A stretch of DNA of 64,000 bases from an uncultured virus (IMG/VR IMGVR_UViG_3300025101_000025) (Duplodnaviria > Heunggongvirae > Uroviricota > Caudoviricetes > Kyanoviridae). The stretch spans positions 1-64,000 of IMG/VR virus record IMGVR_UViG_3300025101_000025; one strand, written 5' to 3'. Below are positions 1-38,089 of this stretch, one piece after another; within the stretch, counting starts at the first letter, position 1; the number at the start of each line of letters is the position of its first letter. The notes beneath the pieces are model-generated. The model made no database searches. It worked only from the letters and a program-made list of their open reading frames with translations, and was not told the origin of the DNA. The position numbers and the translations under genes were made by a program.

Positions 1-5
1 AAATT

Positions 6-206
6 ATGACCAGAAAAGAATACGAATTAGTTTTCCAAGCATTAAAATCTTACAGATGCTACATGAGCAGAGAAGATGAAGCATTATCTGAAAAAATTCT
101 AGATGATCTATTTTATCCTAGTTTTGATAAACTATCAACTGATGATCTAGTAGCAGATGCAGAGGAAGCACTTAAAAATGAAGTTAAAAGTTTGAATTTT
201 AGATAA
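6..206 (+). CDS. Small hypothetical protein, cassette in repeat array
   Basis: 66-aa ORF; preceded by AAATT-ATG like other array members; its TAA is the first 3 nt of repeat copy 1. Confidence 0.75.
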   Translation: MTRKEYELVFQALKSYRCYMSREDEALSEKILDDLFYPSFDKLSTDDLVADAEEALKNEVKSLNFR

Positions 207-244
207 TTCAAACTGATACCTCTAAAATGTTCCTATAGTATAAG
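204..244 (+). repeat. 41-bp intergenic repeat, copy 1 (putative early promoter/cassette boundary)
   Basis: TAATTCAAACTGATACCTCTAAAATGTTCCTATAGTATAAG. Confidence 0.95.
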
Positions 245-256
245 ACAAACAAAATT

Positions 257-700
257 ATGACCACACTTGAAACAACTGATCTAAAAACAAGAGTTGCAGA
301 ATGGACTCAAACCTATGCAAATGCAATCACTCAAAATTATAGAGAGTATCATTTAAATATGCTCACTAGACAAGGCCACCCATATCCAGAGTATGCGAGG
401 GAGCAACTTGACGCTATCGAGAATGGAACAGCGAACCTAATGAAGTTCAAAGTTAAAACTGGTAAGAGATATTACAAAATTGTCCAGATGGAATTTGACA
501 CTTTCCAGAATCGCAATGAATACAGGGAAGGATCAGTTCATGCTTTTGTTGATCGCAATACTGGCGAAGTTTTCAAACCAGCATCATGGGCAGCACCAGC
601 AAAGCATGTAAGATATGATATGAGAATTATCAGAGAGAGAAATTTCTTACATGACCCCACTAATGTAACATGGGCAGGTGGTTATCTCTACATGAGATAA
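257..700 (+). CDS. Hypothetical phage protein
   Basis: 147-aa ORF between repeat copies 1 and 2; motif SVHAFVDRNTGEVFKPASWAAPAK resembles a phage family I recall but cannot name. Confidence 0.85.
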   Translation: MTTLETTDLKTRVAEWTQTYANAITQNYREYHLNMLTRQGHPYPEYAREQLDAIENGTANLMKFKVKTGKRYYKIVQMEFDTFQNRNEYREGSVHAFVDRNTGEVFKPASWAAPAKHVRYDMRIIRERNFLHDPTNVTWAGGYLYMR

Positions 701-737
701 TCACTAATTGATACCACTAAAATGTTCCTATAGTAAG
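698..737 (+). repeat. Intergenic repeat, copy 2
   Basis: TAATCACTAATTGATACCACTAAAATGTTCCTATAGTAAG. Confidence 0.9.
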
Positions 738-751
738 CAATCCAATTAATT

Positions 752-994
752 ATGAAACTCAAAAATATTCTAAACAGAAATTTTGACTCACTCACAAATG
801 ATGAAAAGAAATTCTATGACGATGTTCAAGAAAAATACTTACTAGGAGTATGCGATAAGTATAACATCATAACTGATGAATTAATATATATCGAATATGA
901 TTTTGAAGAGTTATCTGATAAAGGCATCGAAGAATGTGAAAAAAATAATTATACTGCATTATGTGTGGAAGCATTTGAAGAATTGACAAAATAA
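752..994 (+). CDS. Small acidic hypothetical protein
   Basis: 80-aa ORF bounded by repeat copies 2 and 3. Confidence 0.8.
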   Translation: MKLKNILNRNFDSLTNDEKKFYDDVQEKYLLGVCDKYNIITDELIYIEYDFEELSDKGIEECEKNNYTALCVEAFEELTK

Positions 995-1032
995 CTCAAA
1001 CTGATACCTCTAAACTGTTTCTATAGTATAAG
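992..1032 (+). repeat. Intergenic repeat, copy 3
   Basis: TAACTCAAACTGATACCTCTAAACTGTTTCTATAGTATAAG. Confidence 0.95.
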
Positions 1033-1046
1033 ATACAATTAAAATT

Positions 1047-1223
1047 ATGATTCAAAAATTCATCGAAGTCCCAAATACAAATATTAAAGAACCAGTTCTA
1101 AGACATGATTTTGCTGATGAACTATGCTATATGATAGCACAGGATTATGGATATGCCGAGATTGTTTGGTATGCTCTCAACGGTAAAAGAGTTGTTGAAG
1201 GTTTTTATTCTGATAAGGATTAA
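1047..1223 (+). CDS. Small hypothetical protein (58 aa, not in ORF track)
   Basis: Manual translation MIQKFIEVPNTNIKEPVLRHDFADELCYMIAQDYGYAEIVWYALNGKRVVEGFYSDKD; fills the gap between copies 3 and 4. Confidence 0.8.
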   Translation: MIQKFIEVPNTNIKEPVLRHDFADELCYMIAQDYGYAEIVWYALNGKRVVEGFYSDKD

Positions 1224-1264
1224 TAACTCAAACTGATACCTCTAAACTGTTCCTATAGTATAAG
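1224..1264 (+). repeat. Intergenic repeat, copy 4
   Basis: TAACTCAAACTGATACCTCTAAACTGTTCCTATAGTATAAG. Confidence 0.95.
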
Positions 1265-1277
1265 ATTAAACAAAATT

Positions 1278-1511
1278 ATGAACTCTACAGCAACTTACAT
1301 CGAACCAGTAAACAGAATCAAGCAAAGAATTTTATTTGATGATAACCTTAACAACATGGCATGCCTATGTTCAGATTGGTCTGATTTTCTCATTGAAATT
1401 TCAGAATGGGGAATCTACAAATTAGGAGGAGTTGATTTTGACACATTAACAACTTCTGATATTGAGAGACTCGATCAATTCATAAAAGGAGAGAATGGTT
1501 ACATCAGGTAA
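1278..1511 (+). CDS. Small hypothetical protein
   Basis: 77-aa ORF between copies 4 and 5. Confidence 0.8.
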   Translation: MNSTATYIEPVNRIKQRILFDDNLNNMACLCSDWSDFLIEISEWGIYKLGGVDFDTLTTSDIERLDQFIKGENGYIR

Positions 1512-1512
1512 T

Positions 1513-1553
1513 TAACTCAAACTGATACCTCTAAATTGTTCCTATAGTATAAG
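1513..1553 (+). repeat. Intergenic repeat, copy 5
   Basis: TAACTCAAACTGATACCTCTAAATTGTTCCTATAGTATAAG. Confidence 0.95.
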
Positions 1554-1572
1554 CAATCAATCAATTCACATC

Positions 1573-1902
1573 ATGAGAAAAATCGAAACCCAAATGAATC
1601 AAGCAATTAGAGGACAGAGAAACTGGGCAGGTTCTAACACCACAGTTTTTACTACTGATAATGGTCTTGAGTCTACAATCTATCTACATGGAAATCACAT
1701 TGCGACATATTTCCATGATGATCGCAAACTTCAAATTTTCGATGGCGGTTGGCAATCCAATACAACTAAGTCTAGACTCAATGCACTATTAGATGAATTT
1801 GACTACGGTTCTTTTATATTTCAAAAAAACTGGAACTGGTTTTTAGCAAGAAATTTCAACCATAATCACAAAGTTGATTTTTCTTCTGGAATGTTTATCT
1901 AA
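1573..1902 (+). CDS. Hypothetical phage protein
   Basis: 109-aa ORF after copy 5; motifs YLHGNHIA and DGGWQSNTTKSRLNALL. Confidence 0.85.
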   Translation: MRKIETQMNQAIRGQRNWAGSNTTVFTTDNGLESTIYLHGNHIATYFHDDRKLQIFDGGWQSNTTKSRLNALLDEFDYGSFIFQKNWNWFLARNFNHNHKVDFSSGMFI

Positions 1903-1909
1903 GGTTACT

Positions 1910-1950
1910 GGAAGTATTACGGATTAATTCTATAATACTTCCTTTTTATT
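1910..1950 (+). terminator. Rho-independent terminator
   Basis: GGAAGTATTA (1910-1919) / TAATACTTCC (1933-1942) stem followed by TTTTTATT. Confidence 0.75.
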
Positions 1951-2019
1951 TTCTCTCGTTAGTTATTAACGGGCCTCCGAGATTCTCTTCCTTACGAGAG
2001 GCGAAAGCGATTTTTTAAT

Positions 2020-2060
2020 TAACACTAACTGAAACCCCCAAATTGTTATTATTGTATAGG
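2020..2060 (+). repeat. Intergenic repeat, degenerate copy 6
   Basis: TAACACTAACTGAAACCCCCAAATTGTTATTATTGTATAGG; same spacing of TGANACC, AAANTGTT and TATWGT blocks. Confidence 0.75.
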
Positions 2061-2074
2061 ACACAATCAAAATT

Positions 2075-2242
2075 ATGAACACACAAAAAAACTTAGACAT
2101 TGTAAGAGATTTTTTTACAGACGAGCAATGGTTGGCAATTGAATATGCTCTCGGAGATTATCAGGATTATGGGGACGAGCAAGCAGAAATTTCATCTCAA
2201 ATTGAAGATAAGATTTACACACTTTTTAATCAGGTAAAATAA
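2075..2242 (+). CDS. Small acidic hypothetical protein (55 aa)
   Basis: Manual translation MNTQKNLDIVRDFFTDEQWLAIEYALGDYQDYG...; follows copy 6 with AAAATT-ATG. Confidence 0.75.
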   Translation: MNTQKNLDIVRDFFTDEQWLAIEYALGDYQDYGDEQAEISSQIEDKIYTLFNQVK

Positions 2243-2243
2243 C

Positions 2244-2390
2244 ATGAATTACAACGAAATTTGCAGGATTTATAACAACGTAGACAACAACGAGTTAGTA
2301 TCACAAACTGCATACGAATTTGAGATTTATGATGATTTTTATTATCAGTTATTTCACAGTTATTATGAAACAAATAAGGAGGTAAATTAA
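2244..2390 (+). CDS. Small hypothetical protein (48 aa)
   Basis: MNYNEICRIYNNVDNNEL...; starts 1 nt after upstream stop. Confidence 0.65.
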   Translation: MNYNEICRIYNNVDNNELVSQTAYEFEIYDDFYYQLFHSYYETNKEVN

Positions 2391-2560
2391 TGAACAATTT
2401 ATTACTAACTGATGAAGAATTAGACTACCTAGAGTTACTACTTCATAACCACGAATACGAAGAAAAAGATAGAAAATTAATCGACAAATTAGAGTTTAAA
2501 TTCTATCAACTTAAGTCTGACGATTACCAAAACAAAGTTACTACAATGGGGGGTAATTAG
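2390..2560 (+). CDS. Small hypothetical protein (56 aa)
   Basis: MNNLLLTDEELDYLELLL...; strong AAGGAGG SD and TAATG stop/start overlap. Confidence 0.75.
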   Translation: MNNLLLTDEELDYLELLLHNHEYEEKDRKLIDKLEFKFYQLKSDDYQNKVTTMGGN

Positions 2561-2561
2561 C

Positions 2562-2729
2562 ATGATTATTTCTATCACAAAAAGGATTAAATTACCCTCT
2601 GGAAAGTATAAAAAACGTGTGAAATATTCAACTGTAAAGTATCAAATAGAGAAGGTAAAACCAAGAAGATCGCATTACAAATTAAACAGTTTACATGCTG
2701 CTAAGTATCATTTAGTAAGAGAGAGTTAA
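2562..2729 (+). CDS. Small basic hypothetical protein (55 aa)
   Basis: MIISITKRIKLPSGKYKKRVKY...; G-rich SD-like run upstream, 1 nt after upstream stop. Confidence 0.65.
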   Translation: MIISITKRIKLPSGKYKKRVKYSTVKYQIEKVKPRRSHYKLNSLHAAKYHLVRES

Positions 2730-2737
2730 TCTGTTAG

Positions 2738-2850
2738 TTTTACACAATATAGAGGTAATTCTGTGGAAAACTTATTTAATTGTGGAAAAGAATGTATTTA
2801 AAAATATATTTAAGCGTTTTATTTCTCGATTTAATGTTAGTTTTTATAGT
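2738..2850. promoter_or_regulatory. DnaA-box-like cluster plus AT-rich tract
   Basis: TTTTACACA 2738-2746 (+), TGTGGAAAA 2762-2770 and 2781-2789 (= TTTTCCACA on -), then AT-rich 2790-2850; a fourth box TTTTCCACA at 3172-3180. Confidence 0.55.
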
Positions 2851-2865
2851 GATCTTAGCGAGCGT

Positions 2866-2895
2866 ATTATACCACGAACGCCCATAAATTGTAAA
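2866..2895 (-). promoter_or_regulatory. Leftward sigma70-type promoter
   Basis: Minus strand TTTACA-N18-TATAAT with extended TGn -10. Confidence 0.55.
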
Positions 2896-2933
2896 GGGCG
2901 GATAATACTTTTGTCAGAACTTACGCATAATTA

Positions 2934-2962
2934 TTGACAAGAATTGAGAGATAATTTATAAT
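2934..2962 (+). promoter_or_regulatory. Consensus sigma70 (early) promoter
   Basis: TTGACA-N17-TATAAT perfect consensus. Confidence 0.85.
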
Positions 2963-2978
2963 GGTTATATAACACTTA

Positions 2979-3161
2979 ATGGCTGCACAGTTTATGACAA
3001 TTTCCGCGTCTAATTTACAGCAAAAACAGTATCGAATTACGCTGAATTTGTCAGTTCAAAGTGACTTTAATCCGCACCAAATTAACTATGAAAAGTTATT
3101 CAAATTAGATGAGGATTTGGAAGCCCTAAGTGTAACAATTGAGGACTTAAATTATGAGTAG
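2979..3161 (+). CDS. Small hypothetical protein
   Basis: 60-aa ORF just downstream of the consensus promoter; start may be the second Met. Confidence 0.7.
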   Translation: MAAQFMTISASNLQQKQYRITLNLSVQSDFNPHQINYEKLFKLDEDLEALSVTIEDLNYE

Positions 3162-3189
3162 TTAGTGTTAGTTTTCCACAGTTGTTATG

Positions 3190-3230
3190 TAACATAATAT
3201 GAGACCTGTAAAGTGTTCTTATAGTGTAGG
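3190..3230 (+). repeat. Intergenic repeat, degenerate copy 7
   Basis: TAACATAATATGAGACCTGTAAAGTGTTCTTATAGTGTAGG; block spacing identical to copies 1-6. Confidence 0.7.
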
Positions 3231-3358
3231 GAGCAGAGATAGTGAAGAGGGAGACACCGCGTAACCGGTCAGCTGCAGCTTAGTCCCACTCTTGAAATGC
3301 GGAGCTCCGCCTCTAGTTAATTCCCAACCGACTAGATGTAAGTATCCCTACCACTCTT
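3223..3358 (+). ncRNA. Candidate structured non-coding RNA
   Basis: GC-rich, no ORF; closing stem GTAGGGA/TCCCTAC and several internal hairpins found by eye. Confidence 0.6.
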
Positions 3359-3514
3359 TTAACAGTCCGTTACGTGATATAGCAGTTATATGCGGGCGTT
3401 GTTGTTATCGGGGCGGGCGCGATGCCGTTTTAAAAAACCCTTAAGTCCCTAACCTACAGAGGTGACAAATCGATAGCTAAATATTAAACCATATTAAATT
3501 TTTTTTTCTTGGCC

Positions 3515-3625
3515 ATGGGAACACACTACGGATTCACAATAATTGTATGGGTTATAATTGGGTTAATAATATTTTCCAAGTTAGATAGTGGGGGCAAAAA
3601 GAAAAAGAAACGCAAAAACAAATAA
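3515..3625 (+). CDS. Single-TM microprotein with polybasic tail (36 aa)
   Basis: MGTHYGFTIIVWVIIGLIIFSKLDSGGKKKKKRKNK; followed by a terminator. Confidence 0.6.
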   Translation: MGTHYGFTIIVWVIIGLIIFSKLDSGGKKKKKRKNK

Positions 3626-3634
3626 AAAATTTCC

Positions 3635-3657
3635 GGGGGCTCAAAACCCCCTTTTTA
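3635..3657 (+). terminator. Rho-independent terminator
   Basis: GGGGG-CTCAAAA-CCCCC-TTTTT. Confidence 0.7.
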
Positions 3658-3692
3658 GTGTTTTCTAAATACTAATAACATGATTTAAACAC

Positions 3693-3929
3693 ATGAAAGA
3701 ATTTGACGATACAGTGTATCACATCTATGCAAAGGATAAATGTCTTTATCATAATTTAAAGGAAGAAGATTTTGAAGAGACATGGCAACTTCTAACCACT
3801 ATGGTTGGATTAATCAAGACAGATTATTCGGAGTCAGATCTATCATATATTAAGTTAGCACCGAAGGTCGGGTATGGTGGGCCAGGTAAGGTAATATACA
3901 CAGAACCAACTGGAGATGAGTCTTATTGA
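3693..3929 (+). CDS. Hypothetical protein
   Basis: 78-aa ORF; CTAAATA late-promoter-like motif at 3665-3671. Confidence 0.8.
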   Translation: MKEFDDTVYHIYAKDKCLYHNLKEEDFEETWQLLTTMVGLIKTDYSESDLSYIKLAPKVGYGGPGKVIYTEPTGDESY

Positions 3930-3934
3930 AGTGG

Positions 3935-3942
3935 TATAAATA
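3935..3942 (+). promoter_or_regulatory. T4-type late promoter
   Basis: TATAAATA exact T4 late consensus. Confidence 0.65.
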
Positions 3943-3960
3943 AGGTGCAGTATAACCTTT

Positions 3961-4101
3961 ATGTATCACAAACATGACCAAATTAAAAAGAAGAGCAATC
4001 CATATAAGAGACCAGAACCAAAGAAATACGTAGCACAAAAATATCATCAGATAAGAATTTATTTTAAGTGTGAACGACAAAATAAAGTTGACAAAGGTTA
4101 A
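3961..4101 (+). CDS. Small basic hypothetical protein (46 aa)
   Basis: MYHKHDQIKKKSNPYKRPEPKKY... downstream of TATAAATA. Confidence 0.5.
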   Translation: MYHKHDQIKKKSNPYKRPEPKKYVAQKYHQIRIYFKCERQNKVDKG

Positions 4102-4116
4102 CAAAACTGATAAAAT
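4088..4116 (+). promoter_or_regulatory. sigma70-type promoter
   Basis: TTGACA-N17-TAAAAT. Confidence 0.75.
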
Positions 4117-4140
4117 TAAGAATGAAGGTGATCATCATTT

Positions 4141-5025
4141 ATGGCAAAAGGATTTAAAGTAAAAACAGTCGCACCGAAAACAAAAGGCCCTGAATGGGAC
4201 ATCGATGCAATTAAAGAAAGAATGAAAGGGAAGAAGATAGTCTTCTGTCTTCCCGGTAGAGGATGCTCTTATATCTTTCTCAAGAACTTTGTTCAACTAT
4301 GTTTTGACATGGTTCAGAATGGAATGAGTATTCAAATATCTCAGGATTATTCATCTATGGTAAACTTTGCTCGATGTAAAGTTCTTGGAGCAAATGTTTT
4401 AAGAGGCCCCAATCAAGTTCCTTGGGATGGAAAACTTGAGTATGACTATCAGTTATGGATTGATAGTGATATTGTTTTTGATACTGGTAAGTTTTGGCAA
4501 CTATGCGATTTAGCATTTCCTGCTGAAGCAGTTACAAAAGAAGATGTAATTGAACAGGTCAAAGATAACAAAGGAGAGTTAGTTACTGATGACGAAGGTA
4601 ATGTTAAAACTCAAATTACAGGACAGAAAGTATCAGTTGATAATTCTAAACTAAATGGAATTGTTGCTGGTTGGTATGCTACCGAAGACGGTGCGACAAC
4701 CTCTGTTGCACATTGGTTAGAGGAAGATGACTTCCGTAAGAATGGTGGAGTGATGAATCATGAAACTGTTGAAACCATGGGCAAACGTAAAAAACCATTC
4801 ACAGTAGATTACACAGGCTTTGGTTGGGTTATGATTCAGAACGGAGTTTTTGAACAACTGAAGTATCCATGGTTTGCTCCTCAGATGCAAATCTTTGAAT
4901 CAGGTGAAGTTCAAGACATGTGTGGTGAAGACGTATCATTCTGTTTAGATGCACAGGAAAAGGGATTTGAGATCTGGTGCGATCCTCGCATTCGTGTCGG
5001 TCATGAGAAGACAAGGATAATCTAG
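4141..5025 (+). CDS. GT-A fold (GT2-like) glycosyltransferase-like protein
   Basis: WIDSD DxD motif, GFG, GEDVSFC and terminal GH motifs typical of GT2-like proteins. Confidence 0.7.
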   Translation: MAKGFKVKTVAPKTKGPEWDIDAIKERMKGKKIVFCLPGRGCSYIFLKNFVQLCFDMVQNGMSIQISQDYSSMVNFARCKVLGANVLRGPNQVPWDGKLEYDYQLWIDSDIVFDTGKFWQLCDLAFPAEAVTKEDVIEQVKDNKGELVTDDEGNVKTQITGQKVSVDNSKLNGIVAGWYATEDGATTSVAHWLEEDDFRKNGGVMNHETVETMGKRKKPFTVDYTGFGWVMIQNGVFEQLKYPWFAPQMQIFESGEVQDMCGEDVSFCLDAQEKGFEIWCDPRIRVGHEKTRII

Positions 5026-5105
5026 TGGTTATTTCTTTCTTTGCAATCTTACTAATACTTTTTATAATATTAGTATTAGTAACTTATTATAATCCACATC
5101 GTTAA
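5025..5105 (+). CDS. Possible hydrophobic microprotein (26 aa, GTG start)
   Basis: MVISFFAILLILFIILVLVTYYNPHR; start overlaps upstream TAG. Confidence 0.4.
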   Translation: MVISFFAILLILFIILVLVTYYNPHR

Positions 5106-5164
5106 CGACCGCGTTTTCTCGAAAAGAATAAACGTATTAAATAGTATAACTCCTTAATTTTTAT

Positions 5165-5839
5165 ATGGCTTGCCTCTTTGCGAACCTTCCTGCCTACGAA
5201 GTATGGGTGAGAAAGGAATATTTAACGGATCATAAGAGTGGGCATGGAGAATTTGTCAAGGGCGTTTGGGTATCTGTAAAATCAATACCCGGACGTGCTT
5301 TTTATTTTGAAACATACTTACCTGAGTATGCTGCAATGTATGACAAGTTACCCATATCCGCGTTCGTCTCGTCACCTGAGAAACCTGATCCTGATATGAC
5401 ACTTCATAATTTACAGTTTTGGAACTGTATGGACTATGGTGTTGCGGTAATTCAAAAACAATTTGTCGGATCAATGCATTACGAAGTCTATACAAGAGAC
5501 TACGGAACACAAACCGGCACTTATATATGCACAATTGATAATTATCATCAAGATCCTGATGCAATTGATTATTCAACAAGTGAAAACCCAGCTGAACACA
5601 AGTCTCATAACCTAATTGAACTTGATAATGGTCAGTTTTGCCTCTATCCAAACAATCGAACACGTATTTACGACAACAGTTTGACACCAGAAGAACCTAC
5701 GATGCCTGATTTTAAGGTTTCAACGGTTTACTATCAGGTTGAGAACGGTCATGATCGTGATGGATTGGGAAATGATGAGAATTATTTCTGGAAAACAGCA
5801 AAAGAACGTAAACAAGACGAAGAAATTCCCGAATTCTAA
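5165..5839 (+). CDS. Hypothetical cyanophage protein
   Basis: 224-aa ORF, typical codon usage. Confidence 0.85.
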   Translation: MACLFANLPAYEVWVRKEYLTDHKSGHGEFVKGVWVSVKSIPGRAFYFETYLPEYAAMYDKLPISAFVSSPEKPDPDMTLHNLQFWNCMDYGVAVIQKQFVGSMHYEVYTRDYGTQTGTYICTIDNYHQDPDAIDYSTSENPAEHKSHNLIELDNGQFCLYPNNRTRIYDNSLTPEEPTMPDFKVSTVYYQVENGHDRDGLGNDENYFWKTAKERKQDEEIPEF

Positions 5840-5997
5840 TGGAAACAAACGATTTTTTAGACAATCTTGCGAATCATCAATACCAAAAGATGCTTCGTGA
5901 GATTAATAATGATGATTTAACACCTAAAAAGAGTGATACAGTTGAAGAAAGTGAGATTTTTCCTAACGAAGAAAAACCTAAGCCACTTTATGAGTAA
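5839..5997 (+). CDS. Small hypothetical protein (52 aa)
   Basis: METNDFLDNLANHQYQKMLREI...; TAATG overlap with upstream stop. Confidence 0.65.
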   Translation: METNDFLDNLANHQYQKMLREINNDDLTPKKSDTVEESEIFPNEEKPKPLYE

Positions 5998-6005
5998 AAA
6001 CCGTG

Positions 6006-6033: not shown

Positions 6034-6435
6034 ATGCCTCTTGAACGGGTAAAACAAGAATTTAAAGACATAAGTATGTCATTTCAGACTAATCCTCTGA
6101 ATGATGACCTTGTAGCATTGAAAAATGCGAATGCAATTGCAAGGTCAATTCGTAATATCGTCTTTACTGAACCCGGTGAGAAGTTTTTTAATCCAGATTT
6201 TGGATCAAGAATCACAAAATCACTATTTGAGAACGTAGATGAGATTGCTGCATCTGCAATTAAAGATGAAATAGAGTTTTCAATTCAAGAATTTGAACCA
6301 AGAGTTGAATTGATCGAAGTTACAGTGGTTCCTAACTTCGACAGTAACGAAATGAATGCAACAATTGTATATGAAATAGTAGGAATTGATGTTCCACCAC
6401 AACAATTAGAATTCGTGTTACTGCCGACAAGATAA
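6034..6435 (+). CDS. gp25: Baseplate wedge subunit
   Basis: SIRNIVFTEPGEKFFNPDFGS and EPRV motifs; position before gp6. Confidence 0.9.
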   Translation: MPLERVKQEFKDISMSFQTNPLNDDLVALKNANAIARSIRNIVFTEPGEKFFNPDFGSRITKSLFENVDEIAASAIKDEIEFSIQEFEPRVELIEVTVVPNFDSNEMNATIVYEIVGIDVPPQQLEFVLLPTR

Positions 6436-8367
6436 ATGACACTTAAAAATTTTACAAATCTCGATTTTGATCAAATAAAACAGTCATTAAAGGATTATTT
6501 ACAAAATAATTCTAAATTTACTGACTATGATTTTGAAGGATCCAACTTATCAACAATATTAGACGTTCTAGCATATAATACTTACATCACATCTTATAAT
6601 GCAAACATGATATCGAATGAAGTTTTCATCGATTCAGCAACTTTGCGTGAAAATGTGGTTGCATTAGCAAGAAATATAGGTTATGTCCCTCGTTCTAAGA
6701 AATCTTCAAGGGCATTACTTACATTTTTTGCAGATATTTCTTCAGTTTCTCCATCTCCATCAAATTTAACACTTCGTAAAGGGCCTGTTGCAGCAGTTGA
6801 TGCACCATTTGGTCAACAATCGTTTGTTTTTAGCATACCTGAAGATAAAACTATCTCTGTTTTTGATGGAATTGCAGAATTTGACGATCTTGAGGTGTTT
6901 GAAGGAACAGTTTTAGATCAAACGTTTACATTTTCATCAAGAAATCGCTTTCAAAAGTTTATATTACCAAATACTGGAATAGATTTAGACACTTTAGTTG
7001 TAAAAGTCAAACCTTCAGCTGATTCTACAGTGTCAATTAAGTATGAAAGGCATGATAATCTGTTTGATGATGACACAGGATCAGTAATTAATGGAAATTC
7101 TAACATTTATTTCTTACAAGAGGTTTCAAGTGAGCAATATGAGTTAATATTTGGTGATAATATCTTTGGAAAGGCACTTCAAGATGGAAATGTCATCGAA
7201 GTTTCATATATTGTAACCTCTGGTGACGCTGCAAACGGTGTAAATTCATTTAATTATGCGGGAAGTTTATATTATACTCGAAATTCTGTTGAAATAAACG
7301 TAACGACAGGAATTTCTTTGATTACAAGTCCACTTTCATCAAGTGGAGGAGAGTCAATTGAATCTGTTGACTCAATTCGTAAGTTTGCACCTCAAATTTA
7401 TGCAACTCAGAACCGTGCTTTGAGTGCAAATGACTTTGAAGTGTTGATTCCCAATAAAATTTACCCTGAAACTGAATCAATTTCTGTTTTTGGTGGTGAA
7501 GATCTTGTTCCTCCTCAGTTTGGAAAGGTTTTTATTAGCATCAAACCAAGAAATGGTGATTTTGTTCCAAATTTAATCAAACAAAACATAAAAAGAGATT
7601 TGAAAAAGTATTCTGTAGCAGGAATTGTTCCAGAAATACTAGATTTGAAGTATTTGTTTGTTGAAACTAACAGTAAAGTGTATTATAACACAAATTTAGC
7701 ACCAAGTGCGTCATTTGTTTCGACAAAAGTTCAACGTGATATTACAAAATACGCAGAATCTTCTGAATTAAACAAATATGGAGCTAGATTTAAGTATAGT
7801 AAGTTTTTAAAAGTGATTGATCAGAGTCATGAATCAGTTACTTCTAATATTACAACTGTTGAAATGAGAAGAGATCTCCGATTAGCAGTTTTAGAGACTG
7901 CTGAGTATGCAATTGACTTTGGAAATCAGTTTCATATCAAATCAATGAATGGTTTTAATATTAGAACGAGTGCATTTCGTGTTTCAAACATAAACACTGA
8001 TGTTTACTTATATGACGTTCCAAATGCAAATGGGGAAACTGGTCAAATCAATCTATTTTCATTGAATGCTGGAACATCAACACCAGTAATACAAAGAAGA
8101 AATATAGGTGTTATAAATTATGTTACAGGTAGGATTACATTAGATCCAATAAATATTATTTCAGGTAAAACAAAAGATAATGTTCAAATTATGGAGATAT
8201 CTGTATCTCCTGAATCGAACGATATTATCGGATTACAGGATCTTTATTTGCGACTAGATAGTAGTGTTGTAGATACAGTCGTTGATGATATTAGTTCTGG
8301 TATTGACCCATCTGGATCAAATTACACAGTCACCACAAGTTATTCTCAAGGAAACATCATAAGATAA
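6436..8367 (+). CDS. gp6: Baseplate wedge subunit
   Basis: LDFDQIK...FTDYDFEGSNLSTILDVLAYNTY N-terminus; FGD and QNRA motifs. Confidence 0.93.
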   Translation: MTLKNFTNLDFDQIKQSLKDYLQNNSKFTDYDFEGSNLSTILDVLAYNTYITSYNANMISNEVFIDSATLRENVVALARNIGYVPRSKKSSRALLTFFADISSVSPSPSNLTLRKGPVAAVDAPFGQQSFVFSIPEDKTISVFDGIAEFDDLEVFEGTVLDQTFTFSSRNRFQKFILPNTGIDLDTLVVKVKPSADSTVSIKYERHDNLFDDDTGSVINGNSNIYFLQEVSSEQYELIFGDNIFGKALQDGNVIEVSYIVTSGDAANGVNSFNYAGSLYYTRNSVEINVTTGISLITSPLSSSGGESIESVDSIRKFAPQIYATQNRALSANDFEVLIPNKIYPETESISVFGGEDLVPPQFGKVFISIKPRNGDFVPNLIKQNIKRDLKKYSVAGIVPEILDLKYLFVETNSKVYYNTNLAPSASFVSTKVQRDITKYAESSELNKYGARFKYSKFLKVIDQSHESVTSNITTVEMRRDLRLAVLETAEYAIDFGNQFHIKSMNGFNIRTSAFRVSNINTDVYLYDVPNANGETGQINLFSLNAGTSTPVIQRRNIGVINYVTGRITLDPINIISGKTKDNVQIMEISVSPESNDIIGLQDLYLRLDSSVVDTVVDDISSGIDPSGSNYTVTTSYSQGNIIR

Positions 8368-8368
8368 G

Positions 8369-11300
8369 ATGTCAGAAAAAAGAGTTAAGTTAAATCAGAT
8401 TGTAAAAAATCAACTTCCTTCCTATGTGAGGGAGGATTTTCCATTAGTTGGTGATTTTTTATCCCAATACTATCTTGGACAAGAGTATCAAGGTGGGCCA
8501 ATTGATCTTATTCAAAATATTGACTCTTATATTAAATTAAATGAATCTGCAAACAATGTAAAGACAACAACTACATCTAAAACTGTTGGAATATCTTCTG
8601 ATATTATTTTTGTTGCAAATACAAATGGATTTCCTGACCAAAATGGGTTGTTAAAGATAAATGATGAGATAATCACATATGAAAGTAAGACAGATATAAG
8701 TTTTGTTAATTGTTCTAGAGGTTTTAGTGGTATTACTTCATTCACTAATCCATCTGACCCTGAAGATTTAGTTTTTTCTTCATCATTAACCACAAATCAT
8801 GAAAAAGACACTGTAGTTGAAAACTTAAGTGTTTTATTTTTAGATGAATTTTTAAAAAAGACAAAAAATCAATTTTTATACGGTTTTCAAAAAGATTTAT
8901 CAACAAATTTAAACCAAGCTCAATTTTTAAGGCAATCAAAAGACTTTTATTCAACAAGAGGAACTGATGATTCGTTTAAAATACTGTTTGGTGCTCTGTA
9001 TGGCGAACATGCAAGCATTATAAGACCTATTGACAATGTTATATCACCATCAAACGCTAATTACCGAGTAACCAAGGATATTATAGTTGAACCAGTTGAA
9101 GGTGATCCAGAAAATTTGTTAAACAAGACTCTTTTTCAAGATTTGTTTGAAAATGTATCAAAAGCATATGCACCAATATCAAATATTGAAAAAATCTCGG
9201 TTGGAATACTTACAAACACATATTATAAGATTAGTTTAGATGGATCGTTCAATCAAGGTGATGGATCAACTGAATTATTGTATGGAAATTTTTCTGAACA
9301 TGCAAAAACAAAGATTATTGGACAAGTTGGTATAGCACAAACATTTTTAGATGTTGATTCTACATTAGGGTTTCCAAATTCAGGAACTTTAACTTTTGCA
9401 TATGAGAATGGAAGTATTGGTGTTTGCACTTATGCTCAAAAAACAATAAATCAATTTTTAGGAATCAATACAACTGGAATTACTGCAACAATTTCTGATA
9501 ATACGTTTATTGATCAGAATACTTTTGCATATGCTGAAGATAACGGTGTTCAAGATGGAATTAAATTAAAAATACGTTCAGTTCTAAACAATTTAGATTT
9601 ACCAATCGAAACTTATTATCAATTATCTGGTTCAAAGGTAAAAATAAAATCTTTAGGTAAGATAGCAGATGGTTTTAAGGAAAATGGGTGGTTATTCAAC
9701 ACAGCTCAAAGTTATGTTGTAAAAAACTTAAGTATAGTTGATTCTGTTAATAATACATTTAAACTTGTTACTCAAGATGTCAATATTTTAAGAATTGGTG
9801 ATAAAATTACAACTCATGAAACACAGGCATCAGGTGCTCAATGGGGTGATAAAATAACAGATGGATTTGATCCCGTTTCAAATAAAATTTATACTGTTAC
9901 TGATGTTTTCGATGAAAATACTTGTTTGATAACTGGAACAGGTATTTCTGATCCAACAAAAGTTACAAAAGTAACTCGTCGAATATCAAAAATTGATTCT
10001 GACCTACATCCAGATTTAAACCAGTTTACTGCTAATATTCAAAACGTATATCTTAAACCAGATATTGGATTAGTTAGAGGTGTGCCATATTATGGCCCTT
10101 CACATCAGCATAAAGGTAAAAGCATGGTGGGAGCACAACATGTTCCTTTTCCTCATGATTTTATTATACCAGATCCTAATTCAAACAAAGTTTTAGTTGC
10201 ATCTTCATCATTACCCTTTACTGGTGTTACAAAATTAAATCCTAAACTTCAAAAATTTACTTTTAGTGGAACTTACGATTTAAATGACGAAGAAATAAAA
10301 ATTACTGATCAAGTTGATCATAACTACTTCACTGGTGATAAAGTTTACTACACACCTGAAAAGACAAAAATAACAAATACACTACCTGATGGAACAGAGG
10401 TAGTTCAAGAGTTTATTGCAAGTCAACTATTTGATGAAGGATTATATTTCATAAAGAGAGTTAATGGTAATACTGTAAAGTTTGCAAAGAGTCAATCAGA
10501 TATTAATGGTAATAATTTTGTAAAGGTTAAAACTCCAAATGGTGTTGATAACGTTACTATCACTTCTAATGATATTGAAAAGTTTGAATATCAAGGAAAG
10601 AAAATAGAAACTCAAAAACTTTTCAGAGAATTTAAAACACCAATAAATGATGGGGTATCATATCCTACAACATCAGGTTATACAGGTCTTTTAGTCAATG
10701 GTGTAGAGGTATTAAATTACAAATCAAAAAATTCTGTTTTTTATGGACAGTTAAACAGTATTGATGTTGTTAAAGGTGGAGAAAATTATGATGTTATCAA
10801 TCCACCAGTTTTATCCATTACAGATTCTGTAGGAACAGCAGCGACTGGAAAATGTTCCGTTAAAGGAAGTTTTAAAGAAATTAAAATATTAGAATCTGGA
10901 TTTGATTATATCGAAGATCCGGTTATAAAAATAACAGGAGGAAATGGTATCGGGGCAAATGCTGTTCCAAAGTTAAGTATCGTTCCACATGAATCAGTAT
11001 TTAATGCTGATGGTGTAGGATTAGGAACTGTAAACATTGGAGTTGTTACAGCTACCACTGCAGGTGTAAATACATCTTCAATAGGATTTAGCACCTATCA
11101 CAGGTTTAGACAGGGTGAGAGGGTCGTATATGATACTCTGGGGGGTATTCCATTAGTTGGGTTGACTACAGATTCAACTTACTATGTTAATAGTGTTTCG
11201 GAATATACAATCAAACTTCATAAAACATATTCTGATTCTGTAACTGGTATTAATACTATTTCGATTTCTAATTTTGGAAATGGAGTTCAGTCATTTAAAT

Positions 11301-14300
11301 CATTAAATGGAAAGGCTATTGTTAGTTCAATTGCATTATTAGATAATGGTGTGGGTTATGAAAATAAAGAAAGAACTTGTAATTCAATTGGAATTAACAC
11401 AGCATTAGATTCAATTAACATTCCTGATCACGGATTCCAAACAGGTGAGACTCTTCGTTATTCGGTTGATGGAACAACAATAGATGGATTGGTTACAACA
11501 ATAGATTACTTAGTTTCAATTGTTGATGAAGATAATTTTAAACTAGCAGCTGCAGGTGTTGGAACAACCTCTAAAGATTTTTACTTAAAAACAAATCAAT
11601 TCCAAGAATTAAGAAGTGTAGGGTTAGGAACTCATAAATTTAACTACCCACCAATAAGTGTAGAAATAATTGGTAAAGTAGGTTTATCATCAGTAGCAGG
11701 AAAAACATATGATGCTGTGTTACAACCACTTGTTAGAGGAGAAATAACATCAGTTAACTTAACAAATAACGGTGTAGGATATGGTGCTTCAGAAATTATA
11801 AACTTTGACAGGAAACCTGACATCAATTTAAATTCTGGACGTAATGCTGTCTTAACTCCTGTTGTCGCTAATGGTAGAATAGTTGATGTTAGTGTAAGTT
11901 TTGGAGGAACTGATTATAACTCTCCACCAGATCTAGTTGTATTAGGAATTGGATCTGATGCTAAATTAACTCCTGAGTTAAATTCAGCAGGTAATATTGT
12001 TTCAGTTAATATTCAAAGTGGTGGTATAGGATATGGAGTATCATCAACATTCATAAGAATAGATCCTGCAGGAAAAGGATTTAAAGGTGATCCTGTTTTA
12101 CAGTCATGGACAATTAACGAAATAAAGAAAAATGAATTAAACTTGAACGATGATGATGTTTTCATAAGTTCTCCTGTTAATTCAGAGTATGGATTGCAGT
12201 GTTCTTATGCATACGCTCCACGTAATCTTAGACAAATATCTTATGCAAGTGATGCTGATGGAAATATTCTTTATGGTAAGAAAGATTTAAAGATTGTAAA
12301 TGGAGTTGAGTCTGACAGTGATTCACATTCCCCAATACTTGGTTATGCCTATGATGGTAATCCAATATATGGGCCTTTTGGTTTTGTTAATAAAACCGGT
12401 GGTAATGTTGTTCAATTAGAGTCTGGGTATAGTGAAGAAGCAAATAAAAAATCAAATAGACCGCCAACAAGTATTTTCCCACCAGAATTTTTTATTGAAG
12501 ATTTTACATATAATCCATCAGATAACGATGCTGTATTAGATGAAAACAATGGTAGATTTTGTATCACACCAGAATTTCCAAAAGGAACATATGCATACTT
12601 TGCTACTTTTGATACGACTCCTGCATCAGATGGTATATTCAAAAATTTCAAAAAACCAAAGTTCCCTTATTTGATTGGTGATAGTTTTAAATCACAACCA
12701 AATAATTTCAACTTTAATAGATTATCTAATCAAGATAACTATGATCTTGAAAAATCAAATTGTGTAAGAAACACATATCCATATTCATTTAATAAAGATT
12801 TTAGTGGTTATGATTATATCTTACAATCAAATCAGTTTGTAACACAAGACTCTACAATTAATTTTGCAGAAAAAGGCGGTGTCGATAGAGTTGGTATTTT
12901 ATCAGCAGGTAGAAACTATCAAGTCAATGATAAACTTGTTTTTGATGATAGCATTACATCATCATTCAATGCATCAGGTAAAGTAAGTAGAATAAAAGGC
13001 CCTGATATTTCTGAGATAAGTGTTGTTACAACAACTAAGGAAAATATAGAATTTTTCCCAGATTCAAAAAATACATTTGTTGGAATTGCTACAACAAGTA
13101 TTAACTTACAAAATAATACAATCGTCAATGTTGGTTCTCTATCAACAACAACAACTTCTTTACAAGGGTCTTATGCAATAGGAATTACTTCAGACAGACT
13201 TATACTATCTCAAGGTATTGGAACAGCAGCAGCAACTGGTGTTGTTACCTTTTTCCCTGTTGTAGGTGATTTGAGAAGAATAAAGGAAAATGATAGATTC
13301 AAAGTTGGTATTGGAACAGAAGTAATAAAAGTATTGAACGTAGATCGTAGATTGGCAAGGATAAGAGTTTTAAGATCACAAAGTGGAATTGCAACTAATA
13401 TTGGAATATCTCATACAGCATCAACAATTCTTGAAGAAATACCAAGAACATTTAAAATAACAACAGGATTTACAACATCAGTTGATTTAAAAGAGAATAG
13501 AGAATACTATTTTGATCCTGAAGAAGCAGTAGGTTTTGGAACTACATCTGGTGTAGGTGTGGGAACATTTAGATCATTTAGCAATCCCGGAGCTGGAATT
13601 ACTGGCATATTCATACCAAGTCAGTCATTATACATTCCGGGTCATGGATTAAAAACTGGTGATGTTGTTACATATCAAACAACAGGAACAGCTCTTAAAG
13701 TCAAATTTAAAAGCACAGTCCCAACTGTTAACTCAACTTTATTTGTTGACTCACCACTCTTTGTAGCAAATCAAGCAACTAATTTTATAGGTCTATCAAC
13801 TGTTAGAATTGGATTAGGATCTACTGGGTTTGTTGGAATTGGATCAACTTTAGCAGGAGCAGAATTAGTATATTTCCTAGATGCTGGTGCGGGTGATATT
13901 CATAGTCTTAAGACAAAATTTGATAATGTCATCACTGGACAAATTCAGAAGAATCAAGTATCTGTAGTTGGAACAGCAACACATGGTTTAAAAAATAATG
14001 ATACTGTATTCATCGATGTAAATCCCGGTTTAACAACTACTGTTACAGTTAAATACAATGTTTCAAATAGAAAAGTAGTATTCAATCCTTTATCTTACAA
14101 TGACTCTGGTATTACATCAGCAACATCTTTAACTGGTATTCCGAATACAATTAATATAAGTGATCATGGTCTTACAACTGGTCAAAAAGTTATTCATACA
14201 TTTAGTGGTTCAGAAAGTTCTTTAGTTAATGATAAAGAATATTACGTATATGTTGTTGATAGCGATAAAATATCACTTGTTGAAAATAAATATGAAGTTA

Positions 14301-17300
14301 AAAAATTAAAACCAGATTTTGTAAAAGTTGCTATAACAACAGCTGGAACTCTATCACCTGTCAATCCTCCAGTTAAATTCTATAGAGACTCGACTGTTAA
14401 TTTTGATTTATCTGATTCTTCTTTATCATATGTCCAAAGTTCAACGAGTTATCCTGCATTTAAATTTGAGTTATACAAGGATGTAAATTTAAGTCAAAAT
14501 TATGAAACAAGTGGAAAGACTGATACTTTTGAAGTAACAAGAACAGGAACAACTGGTGTTACATCAAATGCAAAACTAACTTTAAAAGTAGACAAAAATA
14601 CACCAAAATTATTATACTACAAATTAGTTGCAGTTAATAGTGATGACAATACAAATGAAAATAAAGAAATAGTTGTAGATAATGAAATTGATTTAAATAA
14701 TCAACTCATTATTAAAAATAGTGAATATAACGGTCAATTTAATATTGTATCAACAGGGAATACAACATTCATATATGATATAAGTTCAATTCCCGAATCT
14801 ACATCATACACATCATCATCATCTAAATTAAAATATTCTACAATATCAACAACAGCGTATGGTGGAATTGATCAACTATTCCTTACTGATCGTGGTGGTG
14901 GATATCTTTCTATTCCCGGAATCACAACTATTACATCGGATGTTGGAGATGGTGCAATAATTGAAACATTTAGTTCAACAATAGGTAAAGTATCAAAAAC
15001 TACTTTAGAAAATATAGGTTTTGACTATCCATCAGATCCTACTTTAAGACCAGACGTATTATTCCCACAAGTATTAAGAATAACTCCTCTAACAGGATTT
15101 AGATCAATTGGAATTACATCGCTTGGTGTTGGGTATATTCAAGATCCGAATCTCGTGGTTATTGATGGTGTAACTAAAAAACAAATTACTGATGTTGATT
15201 TAAGATTCAAACCTGATGAATTATTTGTAGAGATTTTGGAGAATAGTGAGTCGATGAATGCATCAACTCCAACAATTATTCCTACAGGTAATTCTAATGG
15301 AATAAGAGTTTCAAATTTAACATATACTGCTACAGATAATTCTGTTACTGCAACTATTAAAAATTCATTTAGTGGTGTAGTTGGTTTTTCTGGAACATTC
15401 ATAGATCCCTTCCCATTTACTGTTGGTGATAAGGTTTTAGTTGAAAATGCTAGTGTAGGTGTCGGATCAACAGCATCTGGATTTAACTCTGCAAATTATG
15501 ATTTTGCTCGATTTGAAATTATCGAGGTAACACCAAACTATGGTGGAATAGGAACGGTCAAATATAGTATGAATGACTATTTGACAAAGAACGTAGATTT
15601 CCCCGGTGTATTTGACTCTGTAAATTCAGTTACGACATTAATACCTGACAAGTGGTTCCCACAATTTGATATTAAATTACAACCTAATGAGTTTAGGAAA
15701 GGTGATGATGTAGAAAGTGTCGATTCAACTGGAACTAAAATTACAGGAACTGTTTTTGATTGGAATAATTCATCTAAGTATCTAACAGTTGAAAGTTCTA
15801 GAGAATTTGAAAACAATCAACTTATAGAACAAGTAAGATTCCGTGGTGAGAGAGTTGGAAACAAAACATATTCATCACCAACAGGAGCGAAGGGTTTAAT
15901 AAAAGAGATTGTAAAATTTGGTAGTCATTATGATCTTGATTACTTCTCTGAAGTTGAAAATGGATGGGAGTATAAAACTGGTTTCTTAAATGATGAATTA
16001 CAAAGAGTTCATGACAATGATTATTATCAGGCTTTCTCATATTCTATAAAATCAAAAGTTCAAATTAAAGAATGGGAAAATACTGTCAGTTCTTTAAATC
16101 ATACAGCAGGATTTAAAAAGTTTAGTGACCTACAAATCGAGTCTGATCAATTATCATCATCATCGAATAAATTATCTAATATCGATCCTTCAAAAAGTGT
16201 TGTTACAACTTTAGTTGATCTAATTGGTGTAGAAAGTATACACCGTGAATACAATTTTGATCTAGCAACTGAAAATTATTTGGTTGGTTTAACAAAACCA
16301 CTATCAGATGAAATAAACTTTAGTTCAAGATTAATCACTGACTTTGCAGAATCTGTTTCAAATAGAGTTGTTCAAATTGATGACTTCAGTAATATCTTTA
16401 ATAACAACCCCAGAACAACTCGATATGCAGATGTGTATCGTAATAAACTATCTGATGGTAGAACTCAGATGTTCTTTGCGCTTGTTTCAGATAGATTGTT
16501 TACTGGTGAAAGACAAATAACAATCGTAAATACTCTCCATGATACAGGAAGAGGTCAAACCATGCTTAATCAGTATGGTGATATTGATACTGTTCTCGAT
16601 TTAGGATCTTTCGATTATGTTATTGATGGTAATGAATCTGTTTTAAGATACTTCCCAAACAAATTCAAACTTAATAATTATAATGTTGTATTATGGTCTT
16701 ATCAAATTGATGCTCAAAAATTAGGTATATCGACTGATACAGTATCATGTGGTAGCACGACCCTTCCAGCAGCACCTGCTAACCCTACAACAGGTCTTAA
16801 TGGATCTTTAATAAGTATTGCCACAACTGCCGTTACAATCGCTGGAGGGGCAGCAGGGACGGTCTTCACGCTAGGTGGTATTGGAACAAATATATCCGGA
16901 CACAGATCTGCAAAAGTATTAGTTAGTGTTGAAGCTGGTGGTGGAACTTTAAATGGTAGTGTTGAGTATGATCAAGTAAATCTAATACATGATGGAACTA
17001 ATGTTGGATTCCAAGAGTTTGGTCAGTTAACTATTCACTCAGTCGATGCTTACTCATCAACAGGTAATATAGGAACATACTTCCCATTCATGGATGGGGA
17101 TGATCTTGTTCTTTCTTATACTCCAAATGCGGGTATGACAACTGCACATATTAATGCATTGGCAATTGGTATTGCAACTGAAGGTTATATTGGAATCGGA
17201 TCATATGATTTCTCATATGCAGAGATGTCTGCACAATCAACTGGTATTTCATCTAGTGCGACACCAATACCTGTAGGTATTGCAAGTTACAGTAATGAAT

Positions 17301-37448: not shown

Positions 37449-38089
37449 AAAGTTTAGATCGTTTTATAGAAGAGGCAGCAAAAAGTGTCTCTCCAAAAAA
37501 ATGTCCACCCGGATCATATTATTGTTTTGATGAGAAAAAATGCAAAAAAATACCCGGAGGATACCACGTTGGTAGAGGTGGGTTTTTAGAACCTGACTCT
37601 AAAAAGAAAAATGGAAATGGAGGTAACGGTAATGGAAACGGAAATGGCAACGGAAATGGCAACGGTAATGGATCTGGAAATGGTAATGGCTCTGGTAATG
37701 GTGGGAACGGCGGCTCTGGTAATGGTGGGGGTGGCGGCGGTGGAATTGGCGAGGAGGTAGTAAACTTACCACTTCATGTTATAATTCCAAAATCTCAAGT
37801 TGAATTTAATCTAGGACTCATGTTTAAAGAGAGTTTAGATCAAGATACGGGAATGTTGTTCATATTTAAAGAGAATGGTGAAAAATATTTTCATATGAAA
37901 AATACAGTCATTCCTTTAGATGTTGCTTTTATTGACGAGCAAGGTTATGTTGCTAATATCAAAGAATTATATCCTTTAAAAACAACTGCAATTCCATCAG
38001 AATGTAATGCCAGATATGCTCTTGAAGTTAATCGTGGTTGGTTTGAAAGAAATAATGTGAAAATAGGGGATAAAGTTTTAGATATATAA
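37445..38089 (+). CDS. DUF192-domain protein with Cys motif and Gly/Asn linker
   Basis: GLMF...GMLFIF...FHMKNTVIPLDVAFID...YALEVNRGWF...IGD is the DUF192 pattern. Confidence 0.8.
   Translation: MKSLDRFIEEAAKSVSPKKCPPGSYYCFDEKKCKKIPGGYHVGRGGFLEPDSKKKNGNGGNGNGNGNGNGNGNGNGSGNGNGSGNGGNGGSGNGGGGGGGIGEEVVNLPLHVIIPKSQVEFNLGLMFKESLDQDTGMLFIFKENGEKYFHMKNTVIPLDVAFIDEQGYVANIKELYPLKTTAIPSECNARYALEVNRGWFERNNVKIGDKVLDI
37609..37750 (+). repeat. In-frame (Gly-Asn)n / poly-Gly low-complexity repeat
   Basis: NGNGGNGNGNGNGNGNGNGNGSGNGNGSGNGGNGGSGNGGGGGGG encoded with varied codons. Confidence 0.9.

Follow-up and report, generated by a model that had tools for sequence, protein, structure and literature searches.

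The DNA analyzed in this work (hereafter, the window) comprises the 64,000 nucleotides from position 1 to 64,000 of the IMG/VR record IMGVR_UViG_3300025101_000025, an uncultured virus of the Kyanoviridae, and it opens with an array of small genes interspersed with copies of a short conserved element. The explanation that best accounts for the data as a whole, to which a probability of about 0.6 can be assigned, is that this element would serve, in one clade of T4-like cyanophages, as the start signal of early genes, that general recombination between its copies (presumably due to a UvsX-type enzyme) would delete, insert, and reorder whole promoter-plus-gene units, and that a box at the 5' end of the element, private to each lineage, would most likely be read by a phage protein, referred to as f34, whose C-terminal tail might bind it.

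Copies of the Element in the Window

The original prediction, which was based on the letters of the window, described seven copies of a 41-bp element and proposed that the full contig be scanned with a position weight matrix. The scan of the 72,674-bp contig disclosed seven copies on the + strand and none on the - strand, whose scores (44.5-64.7) are far above that of the next-best site (4.1); in a leave-one-out analysis, each copy was regained at 25.9-61.8, with a background maximum of 6.1. All the predicted starts were recovered, except that copy 2 is in register from 699 and not from 698. The cores located by the matrix scan and the only hairpin seen in the array are the following:

212..241, + strand: core of copy 1, with the private box ACTGATA at its 5' end, the shared block CCTCTAAANTG, and the -10-like sequence TAGTAT
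707..736, + strand: core of copy 2
1000..1029, + strand: core of copy 3
1232..1261, + strand: core of copy 4
1521..1550, + strand: core of copy 5
1910..1950, + strand: hairpin with a U-run, likely a terminator ending the run of single-gene cassettes (-14.8 kcal/mol for 1905-1955)
2028..2057, + strand: core of copy 6, a variant kept in relatives, heading the open reading frames (ORFs) at 2075-2729
3198..3227, + strand: core of copy 7, a variant kept in relatives, with no ORF directly behind it

As had been described, the ORF positions place a stop codon beside copies 1-5 and an ATG behind each of them; 5-9 nt separate the upstream stop codon from the core, and an A-rich leader without a Shine-Dalgarno sequence precedes the ATG. 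The notion that each unit consists of the element plus one ORF applies to copies 1-5, but not to copy 6, which is preceded by 125 nt including the hairpin and heads four ORFs, nor to copy 7, which heads none. The hairpin has a long loop, so that it was not caught by the automated hairpin scan; directly 5' of copies 1-5, no stem-loop terminator was found, i.e., the stem-loop expected of promoter-early stem-loops (PeSLs) is lacking there.

Copies 6 and 7 had been interpreted as the outcome of a decay toward the right end of the array; since their deviant sequences are nearly identical in relatives, they are to be considered stable variants rather than decaying copies. The expected continuation of the array was confirmed by two relatives harboring 19 and 20 copies, respectively, on single contigs, which indicates that the array reaches about 10 kb further upstream than the window.

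Behind copy 7, a GC-richer stretch devoid of ORFs (3228-3480), present also in the relatives L058 and L017, might correspond to a small RNA; its folding is no better than that of shuffled sequences (z -0.53), and no Rfam match was obtained for it, for positions 1-6000 of the window (E up to 1), or for 11 loci. ORF-less stretches of a similar kind lie behind single copies in P-TIM68, S-SM2, and L061.

Distribution of the Compact and Dyad Elements

The element, referred to as compact, was also found in the isolates P-TIM68 (13 copies), S-SM2 (at least 7), SynMITS9220M01 (at least 10), S-B05 (12 in its array), and S-B43; in the first four of them, each set of copies lies on one strand, in the early region. 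In a tree of gp6, these four isolates, the window, and Bellamy form one clade of six (support 97/96). A different element, a dyad, occurs in Syn9, P-TIM40, P-SSM2, P-SSM4, Bellamy, and S-SCSM1; in 23 of its 39 sites, 31 bp separate the end of the right half from the -10. The dyad status was established for these six isolates; ten others lack the strict compact pattern, which also missed S-B05. The array of the window contains no dyad copy, and the relative L006 contains 18 compact sites and no dyad.

Bellamy is the sister of S-SM2 according to gp6 (99/98), yet it is of the dyad type. The two phages (L070 and L069, respectively) thus differ in their early elements, and Bellamy also lacks f34, which points to the replacement of the whole early block. 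When the half-site matrix of the dyad was applied to the compact copies, those of the window scored from -7.7 to -1.4 and those of SynMITS9220M01 up to 8.4; moreover, the S-B05 copies end in the dyad half-site word fused to the -10. It is possible that the compact element and the dyad half-site have a common origin.

A loose pattern in the style of P-TIM68 was discarded, as it retrieved mainly single chance matches. The strict core gave three single matches in GTDB genomes, none of which is cyanobacterial by title. In S-SM2 (L069, 11467 and 13324) and SynMITS9220M01 (L071, 10209, 11142, and 11880), some annotated starts sit on an ATG within the 3' end of the element, and the true starts are probably located downstream. 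The records of S-B05 and S-B43 (L371 and L619) have the array in two distant places, possibly because of mis-assembly or inversion.

Core Architecture and -10 Register

The element turned out to be shorter than the 41 bp initially proposed, the shared core spanning about 28-30 bp (core positions 1 to ~30) and the flanks following the neighboring genes. The 5' TAACTCAA part accompanies the upstream gene, and the 3' end with the leader accompanies the downstream one: identity at -30 to -2 is 0.72-0.92 in junctions sharing the upstream gene (0.24-0.60 in unrelated pairs), and identity at positions 30 to 42 is 0.60-1.00 in those sharing the downstream gene (0.28-0.61 in unrelated ones). This switch of identity across the core indicates that the true shared unit is the ~30-bp core and that exchange occurs within or beside it. 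The bases T3, G4, and A5 are invariant in all the 56 junction types described below, deviant copies included. The lineages have in common the block CC.C.AAA..G and the end TARTRT; the seven 5' bases are uniform inside one genome and differ by lineage, being ACTGATA in the window lineage and TTAGTTA, TTACTCA, GGGGGGT, ACTGAAG, and others elsewhere. No inverted repeat exists in the element.

As for the -10-like box, previously placed at TATAGT (core 23-28), the comparison of five lineages revealed that TAGTRT (25-30) fits better, and this is probably the correct register. In P-TIM68, the base frequencies are 0.00 for T23 and 0.08 for A24, against 0.92 each for T25 and A26; in the window lineage by itself, the two registers are nearly equal. 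With the TAGTRT register, the private box lies 17 bp upstream, i.e., at the -35 position. The spacing of 15 bp previously reported for the -35-like hexamer is right in the TATAGT register; TAGTAT, which starts two bases later, is 17 bp from YTGATA. A further candidate for the -10, TAAANT at core 12-17, was ruled out by the frequency of T17 (0.36 in S-SM2 and 0 in S-B05).

In the window lineage, YTGATA-17-TAGTAT shares 8-9 of 12 positions with the sigma70 consensus. Other lineages possess GGGGGT or TACTCA at the same position, that is, they have no -35, and the identification of the element with a plain sigma70 promoter failed at the family level. The proposal of a phage-specific, promoter-like element is supported at the sequence level.

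Exchange of Genes at the Element

Besides the window, 18 related contigs were found by pattern scans, some of which are near copies of one population. In this dataset, 139 copies with both neighbors (seven neighbor labels were corrected by hand) fall into 56 junction types, with 14 gene families having more than one downstream partner and 14 having more than one upstream partner. A true re-ordering was also observed, the 58-aa ORF being located ahead of the DUF7717 ORF in L056 and L065 and two units behind DUF7717 in the window. Hence, the suggested comparison of cassette content and order with relatives revealed different orders, with breakpoints in or beside the core, and the predicted gain, loss, and reordering of genes at the element agree with the junction types, the re-orderings, and the switch of the flanks. 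A side observation concerns L005, in which two copies (8635 and 10302) have the same leader and gene start behind each, as in a duplication-type junction.

The original prediction also invoked integron cassettes, and one might imagine the element to be a site-specific recombination site like attC, served by a dedicated recombinase. One-gene units, a fixed length, invariant blocks, and real re-orderings are what such a site would produce. In contrast, the intervals of the 11 junctions (out of 34) with well-fitting parents, i.e., -11 to -7, -2 to 11, 2 to 16, 7 to 27, 11 to 35, 20 to 22, and >=44, have no crossover position in common; neither tyrosine (PF00589) nor serine (PF00239) recombinases were detected in the three complete element-bearing isolates, nor PF00589 in two partial contigs, that of the window among them; and the element has no inverted repeat, a -10-like end, and an A-rich leader. 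A dedicated site of this kind is thus largely refuted, with scarcely any probability left to it. RecA/UvsX is present in all three complete isolates. The search for a recombinase or an activator, which had been recommended, therefore yielded no recombinase in these three genomes and one candidate activator, f34, encoded outside the window.

Some data tell against the exchange being tied to the element. Two crossovers map to the start codon or further downstream, and a third one lies 5' of the core; partner changes affect 14 of the 26 families at element junctions and 6 of the 21 at other junctions (the latter counted by hand), a difference that is not significant (Fisher p 0.14); and all the rearranged orders of the window lineage derive from short-read metagenome assemblies. 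This last fact raises the possibility that the different gene orders are assembly chimeras formed at repeats. Nevertheless, the window copies have at most 30 identical bases in common, and the rearranged contigs hold distinct alleles, just 75-91% identical, which makes chimeric assembly unlikely; in addition, L061 has the window order again, at 99%, and novel junctions are shared by separate assemblies, namely, by L056 and L065 and by L066 and L068. The probability of such an artifact is very low. Element joints in four sequencing runs, which consisted of contigs, were not used, because of their short sides and of possibly misplaced repeats.

On the basis of these sequence comparisons, the shuffling is homologous and PeSL-like, without stem-loops, and not of the integron type. 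The combination of a promoter with homologous shuffling is regarded as highly probable.

A Candidate Reader Protein

The screening of 756 SynMITS9220M01 ORFs against four compact and four dyad isolates led to f34, a basic protein without annotation, 183-220 aa long in most members (~190 aa). The gene (L057:476-1024) is located 6,947 nt upstream of the first ORF of the window in two relatives, inside the array and outside the window. Both single-sequence and profile searches retrieved it in 4 of 20 isolate genomes, which are the four with the element, and it is found in 10 of 50,697 phage records; among the isolates, the homologues are SSM2_065 in S-SM2, AIR93418.1 in P-TIM68, and SynMITS9220M01_053 in SynMITS9220M01. 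All the 80 viral loci picked through f34, i.e., the 80 out of 583 that most resemble the window lineage, carry the compact element, and none of them is of the dyad class. Conversely, of the 80 loci picked through Kyano_Gp96, 70 are of the dyad class and none has f34; just 16 of these loci include 10 kb of upstream DNA, and f34 is absent from all the dyad loci so extended (16/16).

At 75 of 77 f34 loci, the sequence TAAATA occurs no more than 70 nt from the start, as against 46 of 960 other ORFs. This motif is that of the T4 late promoter (PMC3037559). Hence, f34 carries a late-promoter motif although it is sited among early genes. Its N-terminus has the pattern K[TSQ]FxxF..E in 71 of 80 members, and its net charge is +0.18 per residue. 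This pattern resembles that of the T4 capsid-targeting sequence. To judge from these sequence signals, f34 would be a late product that is packaged in the head and enters the host along with the DNA. Homologues of f34 form 2,962 clusters, and the protein has no match to a Pfam, PHROG, or PDB family; helices are modelled at residues 89-104, 110-123, and 143-161. Longer forms of f34 (300-500 aa) with extra N-terminal segments after the same start pattern are present in L098, L116, L187, L120, L217, and L227. In the window, the ORFs at 37089 and 37445 also start with K[TSQ]FxxF..E, yet they are not basic.

Covariation of the Private Box and the f34 Tail

In 12 of 13 families, the sharing of a box is predicted better by f34 identity than by the identity of the neighboring gene over the same pairs (0.72-0.92 vs. 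0.38-0.83). The f34 signal resides in the last two 30-residue windows (area under the curve, AUC, 0.84 and 0.90, vs. 0.47-0.70 in the others), which places it within the C-terminal 45 residues. When box and tail were each divided by hand into three classes, the two agreed in 75 of 86 loci. On a FastTree tree of the N-terminal part of f34, at least 18 changes of box class are required, with well-supported branches forcing 5-8 changes per class. A fourth tail type goes with TTACTCA (S-B05, L092, L095, and L223), and two single-cell viral contigs, not used in drawing the classes, fit the predicted pairing of box and tail. An 80-aa gene (phrog_21741, L386:700-939) is also present in the four compact isolates and in none of the four dyad ones, and it tracks the box less well (AUC 0.69). 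Overall, a functional coupling between the f34 tail and the box is regarded as fairly probable.

Several observations weigh on the other side. The selection of the 80 f34 loci by likeness to the window lineage has already been mentioned; the box and tail classes were drawn after the AUC result was known, and the pairs are not independent; S-B43, the clearest contrary case, has eight element copies and no f34 match (its array is split and rearranged with respect to that of S-B05, so that either an assembly gap or a true absence is possible); the structure model of f34 is mostly disordered (pTM 0.24), with no known DNA-binding fold. Lastly, 80 of 105 loci have a copy of the element no more than 60 nt from the f34 stop codon, so that tail and box are physically linked, and the distant f34 of S-B05 also has two copies 0.7-1.7 kb downstream.

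This linkage is at the heart of a different explanation, according to which the element is read by the RNA polymerase of the host, with or without a host factor, and f34 is an ordinary internal protein: the box would be kept uniform by recombination among copies, and the f34 tail would follow it through its linkage to the copy at the stop codon. The location of the element right behind f34, the lack of f34 in S-B43, the sigma70 matches of YTGATA-17-TAGTAT in the window lineage, and the demonstrated crossovers among copies are in agreement with it. On the contrary, the lineages with GGGGGT or TACTCA offer no -35 to the host enzyme; copies upstream and downstream of f34 belong to the same class in 62 of 77 loci, the remainder comprising 2 clear conflicts and 13 loci with unclassified copies; the box is not tracked by a helicase gene lying ~700 nt away from f34 (AUC 0.53 vs. 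0.79); and T3, G4, and A5 do not vary even in the deviant copies. In the light of these data, a reading by the host polymerase is considered unlikely.

According to the explanation preferred here, the element would be composed of three parts, namely, the lineage-private 7-bp box at -35, the shared block CC.C.AAA..G, and the -10-like TAGTRT. Since all the copies have the same orientation and are positioned between whole ORFs, recombination between them would move whole units and keep the copies alike. The injected f34 might allow the host polymerase to use promoters without a true -35. A new tail would arrive together with the adjacent copy of the element, and its box would then spread via the same recombination that shuffles the genes. 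That the coupling consists in the activation of early transcription by injected f34 is a tentative proposal, whose chances we place a little under one half.

Alternatively, f34 might bind the box without activating, either for a late shut-off of the early promoters or for the organization or protection of DNA in the head or during entry. A late-promoter motif and a strongly basic, largely disordered chain would suit such a role, and T4 internal proteins are mostly DNA-protecting (PMC3012670). However, in other phages the same genes are headed by the dyad, which has been lost from the f34-bearing clades, so that f34 and the box would replace a promoter part, and a repressor packed on the DNA would be expected to stop the first transcripts. 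This role appears quite improbable.

The findings bear on how T4-like cyanophages start their early programme, for which they offer a named candidate protein and a predicted specificity module. If f34 is indeed an injected reader of the box, only a virion with the matching tail would be able to turn on the early genes. Cultured phages for testing it exist, i.e., P-TIM68, S-SM2, and SynMITS9220M01, with Bellamy as the dyad-type sister of S-SM2.

Cassette Genes and Genomic Setting

The remaining features of the array and of its surroundings are the following:

6..206, + strand: cassette ORF of 66 aa, phrog_36090/19727, function unknown; preceded in relatives by its own element, which here falls just before the contig end
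257..700, + strand: cassette ORF of 147 aa, DUF7717 (PF24835)
752..994, + strand: cassette ORF of 80 aa, no family; missing at this place in the relatives L058, L056, L059, and L065
1047..1223, + strand: cassette ORF of 58 aa, phrog_17176; ahead of the DUF7717 ORF in L056 and L065
1278..1511, + strand: cassette ORF of 77 aa, phrog_9580
1573..1902, + strand: cassette ORF of 109 aa, Kyano_Gp96 (PF23790)
2075..2729, + strand: four small ORFs (55, 48, 56, and 55 aa) behind copy 6
2934..2962, + strand: canonical sigma70 promoter TTGACA-17-TATAAT before the 60-aa ORF at 2979, of a class distinct from the element
6034..8367, + strand: baseplate genes gp25 and gp6

The ORF at 2979 corresponds to phrog_12516, and a second strong promoter-like site lies on the - strand (2895-2866). 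The window belongs to a T4-like cyanomyophage whose gp6 is closest to those of S-SM2 (64.7%), Bellamy, SynMITS9220M01, and P-TIM68, and the position of gp25 and gp6 behind the array shows that the latter is the region of early genes in a genome of the Kyanoviridae. Syn9, P-TIM40, P-SSM2, and P-SSM4 have a run of small ORFs at the same place, just before gp25 and gp6, which, as reportedly described by Doron et al. (2016), is presumably the early region.

The cassette ORFs of the window match only families of unknown function, DUF7717 and Kyano_Gp96 included. Pfam matches were obtained for 4 of 30 proteins from relatives (a helicase, two DUFs, and a T5orf172-type domain), and one of the ORFs that P-TIM68 has behind an element carries the annotation of a putative anti-restriction protein; it is plausible that the cassettes carry a putative anti-defense cargo. 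Elsewhere in the window, an ORF of 4,379 aa follows gp6 in the baseplate region (8369-21508), five loose 49-nt repeats lie within a coding region (35385-36195), and a Gly-Asn tandem repeat is located at 37622-37693.

Comparison with Known Systems

PeSLs have been described in the T4-type phages RB49/phi1, T4/PST, and KVP40/nt-1 (PMC2839356; PMC4122927). As in those phages, repeated promoter units lie between small ORFans in a variable region, genes are gained, lost, and exchanged at the units, and crossovers occur at several places with no known recombinase (PMC2839356; PMC4122927). The analogy with PeSLs drawn in the original prediction is therefore well founded as regards repeated units, gene exchange, and scattered crossovers. 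On the other hand, copies 1-5 have neither a stem-loop terminator nor a Shine-Dalgarno sequence, the promoter probably departs from the plain sigma70 consensus, and there are a lineage-private box, a covarying phage protein, and a cyanophage host. The array thus works in a PeSL-like manner and, in the absence of the stem-loop, represents a variant rather than a member of that group. For the S-PM2 ORFanage, one study considered shuffling by PeSLs to be unlikely (PMC4503421). The present data would extend PeSL-like shuffling of early genes to marine cyanophages, with promoter-only units; if the shuffling alone holds, this is a modest extension of known T4 biology. Arrays of integron attC sites resemble the one described here in their one-gene units, and differ from it in having an integrase, a palindromic attC, and a fixed crossover, and in lacking a promoter-like element in each unit.

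At T4 middle promoters, the MotA box is used with MotA/AsiA, and Alt is an injected head protein that favors early promoters; T4-like cyanophages, according to the same source, are without MotA and AsiA (PMC5780444). The system proposed here would share with that of MotA a phage box near -30 in place of the -35 and a phage protein as its reader. It would differ in that MotA is made after infection, whereas f34 has late and packaging signals; Alt, in turn, modifies the polymerase and reads no DNA sequence. T4 internal proteins bear a capsid-targeting sequence (PMC3012670), and those known to do so are, unlike f34, anti-restriction proteins. Among host regulators, PMM1637/PlmA has the site CGRE1 (PMC6191309). 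A literature search on the compact cyanophage element and on f34 retrieved nothing, although subscription papers, Doron et al. (2016) included, may bear on the novelty of both. The likeness of f34 to the T4 internal proteins concerns the short conserved N-terminus and the basic chain; no T4 internal protein is known to track a promoter sequence.

The closest counterpart is the early-gene regulatory element of the T4-like cyanophages Syn9 and P-TIM40, reportedly described by Doron et al. (2016), to which the dyad found in this work would correspond. Both elements occupy the same region, have the same gene families behind them (DUF7717 and Kyano_Gp96), and consist of a repeated non-canonical promoter with a -10-like end; that of the window clade is compact and non-palindromic, whereas theirs is a dyad. 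The compact element takes the place of the Syn9-type dyad element while differing from it. The clade might thus have replaced the common dyad by a private lock and key, that is, a compact promoter with a -35 box read by a late-made, packaged, and injected f34 bearing a swappable C-terminal module, a possibility toward which we lean slightly less than toward its contrary.

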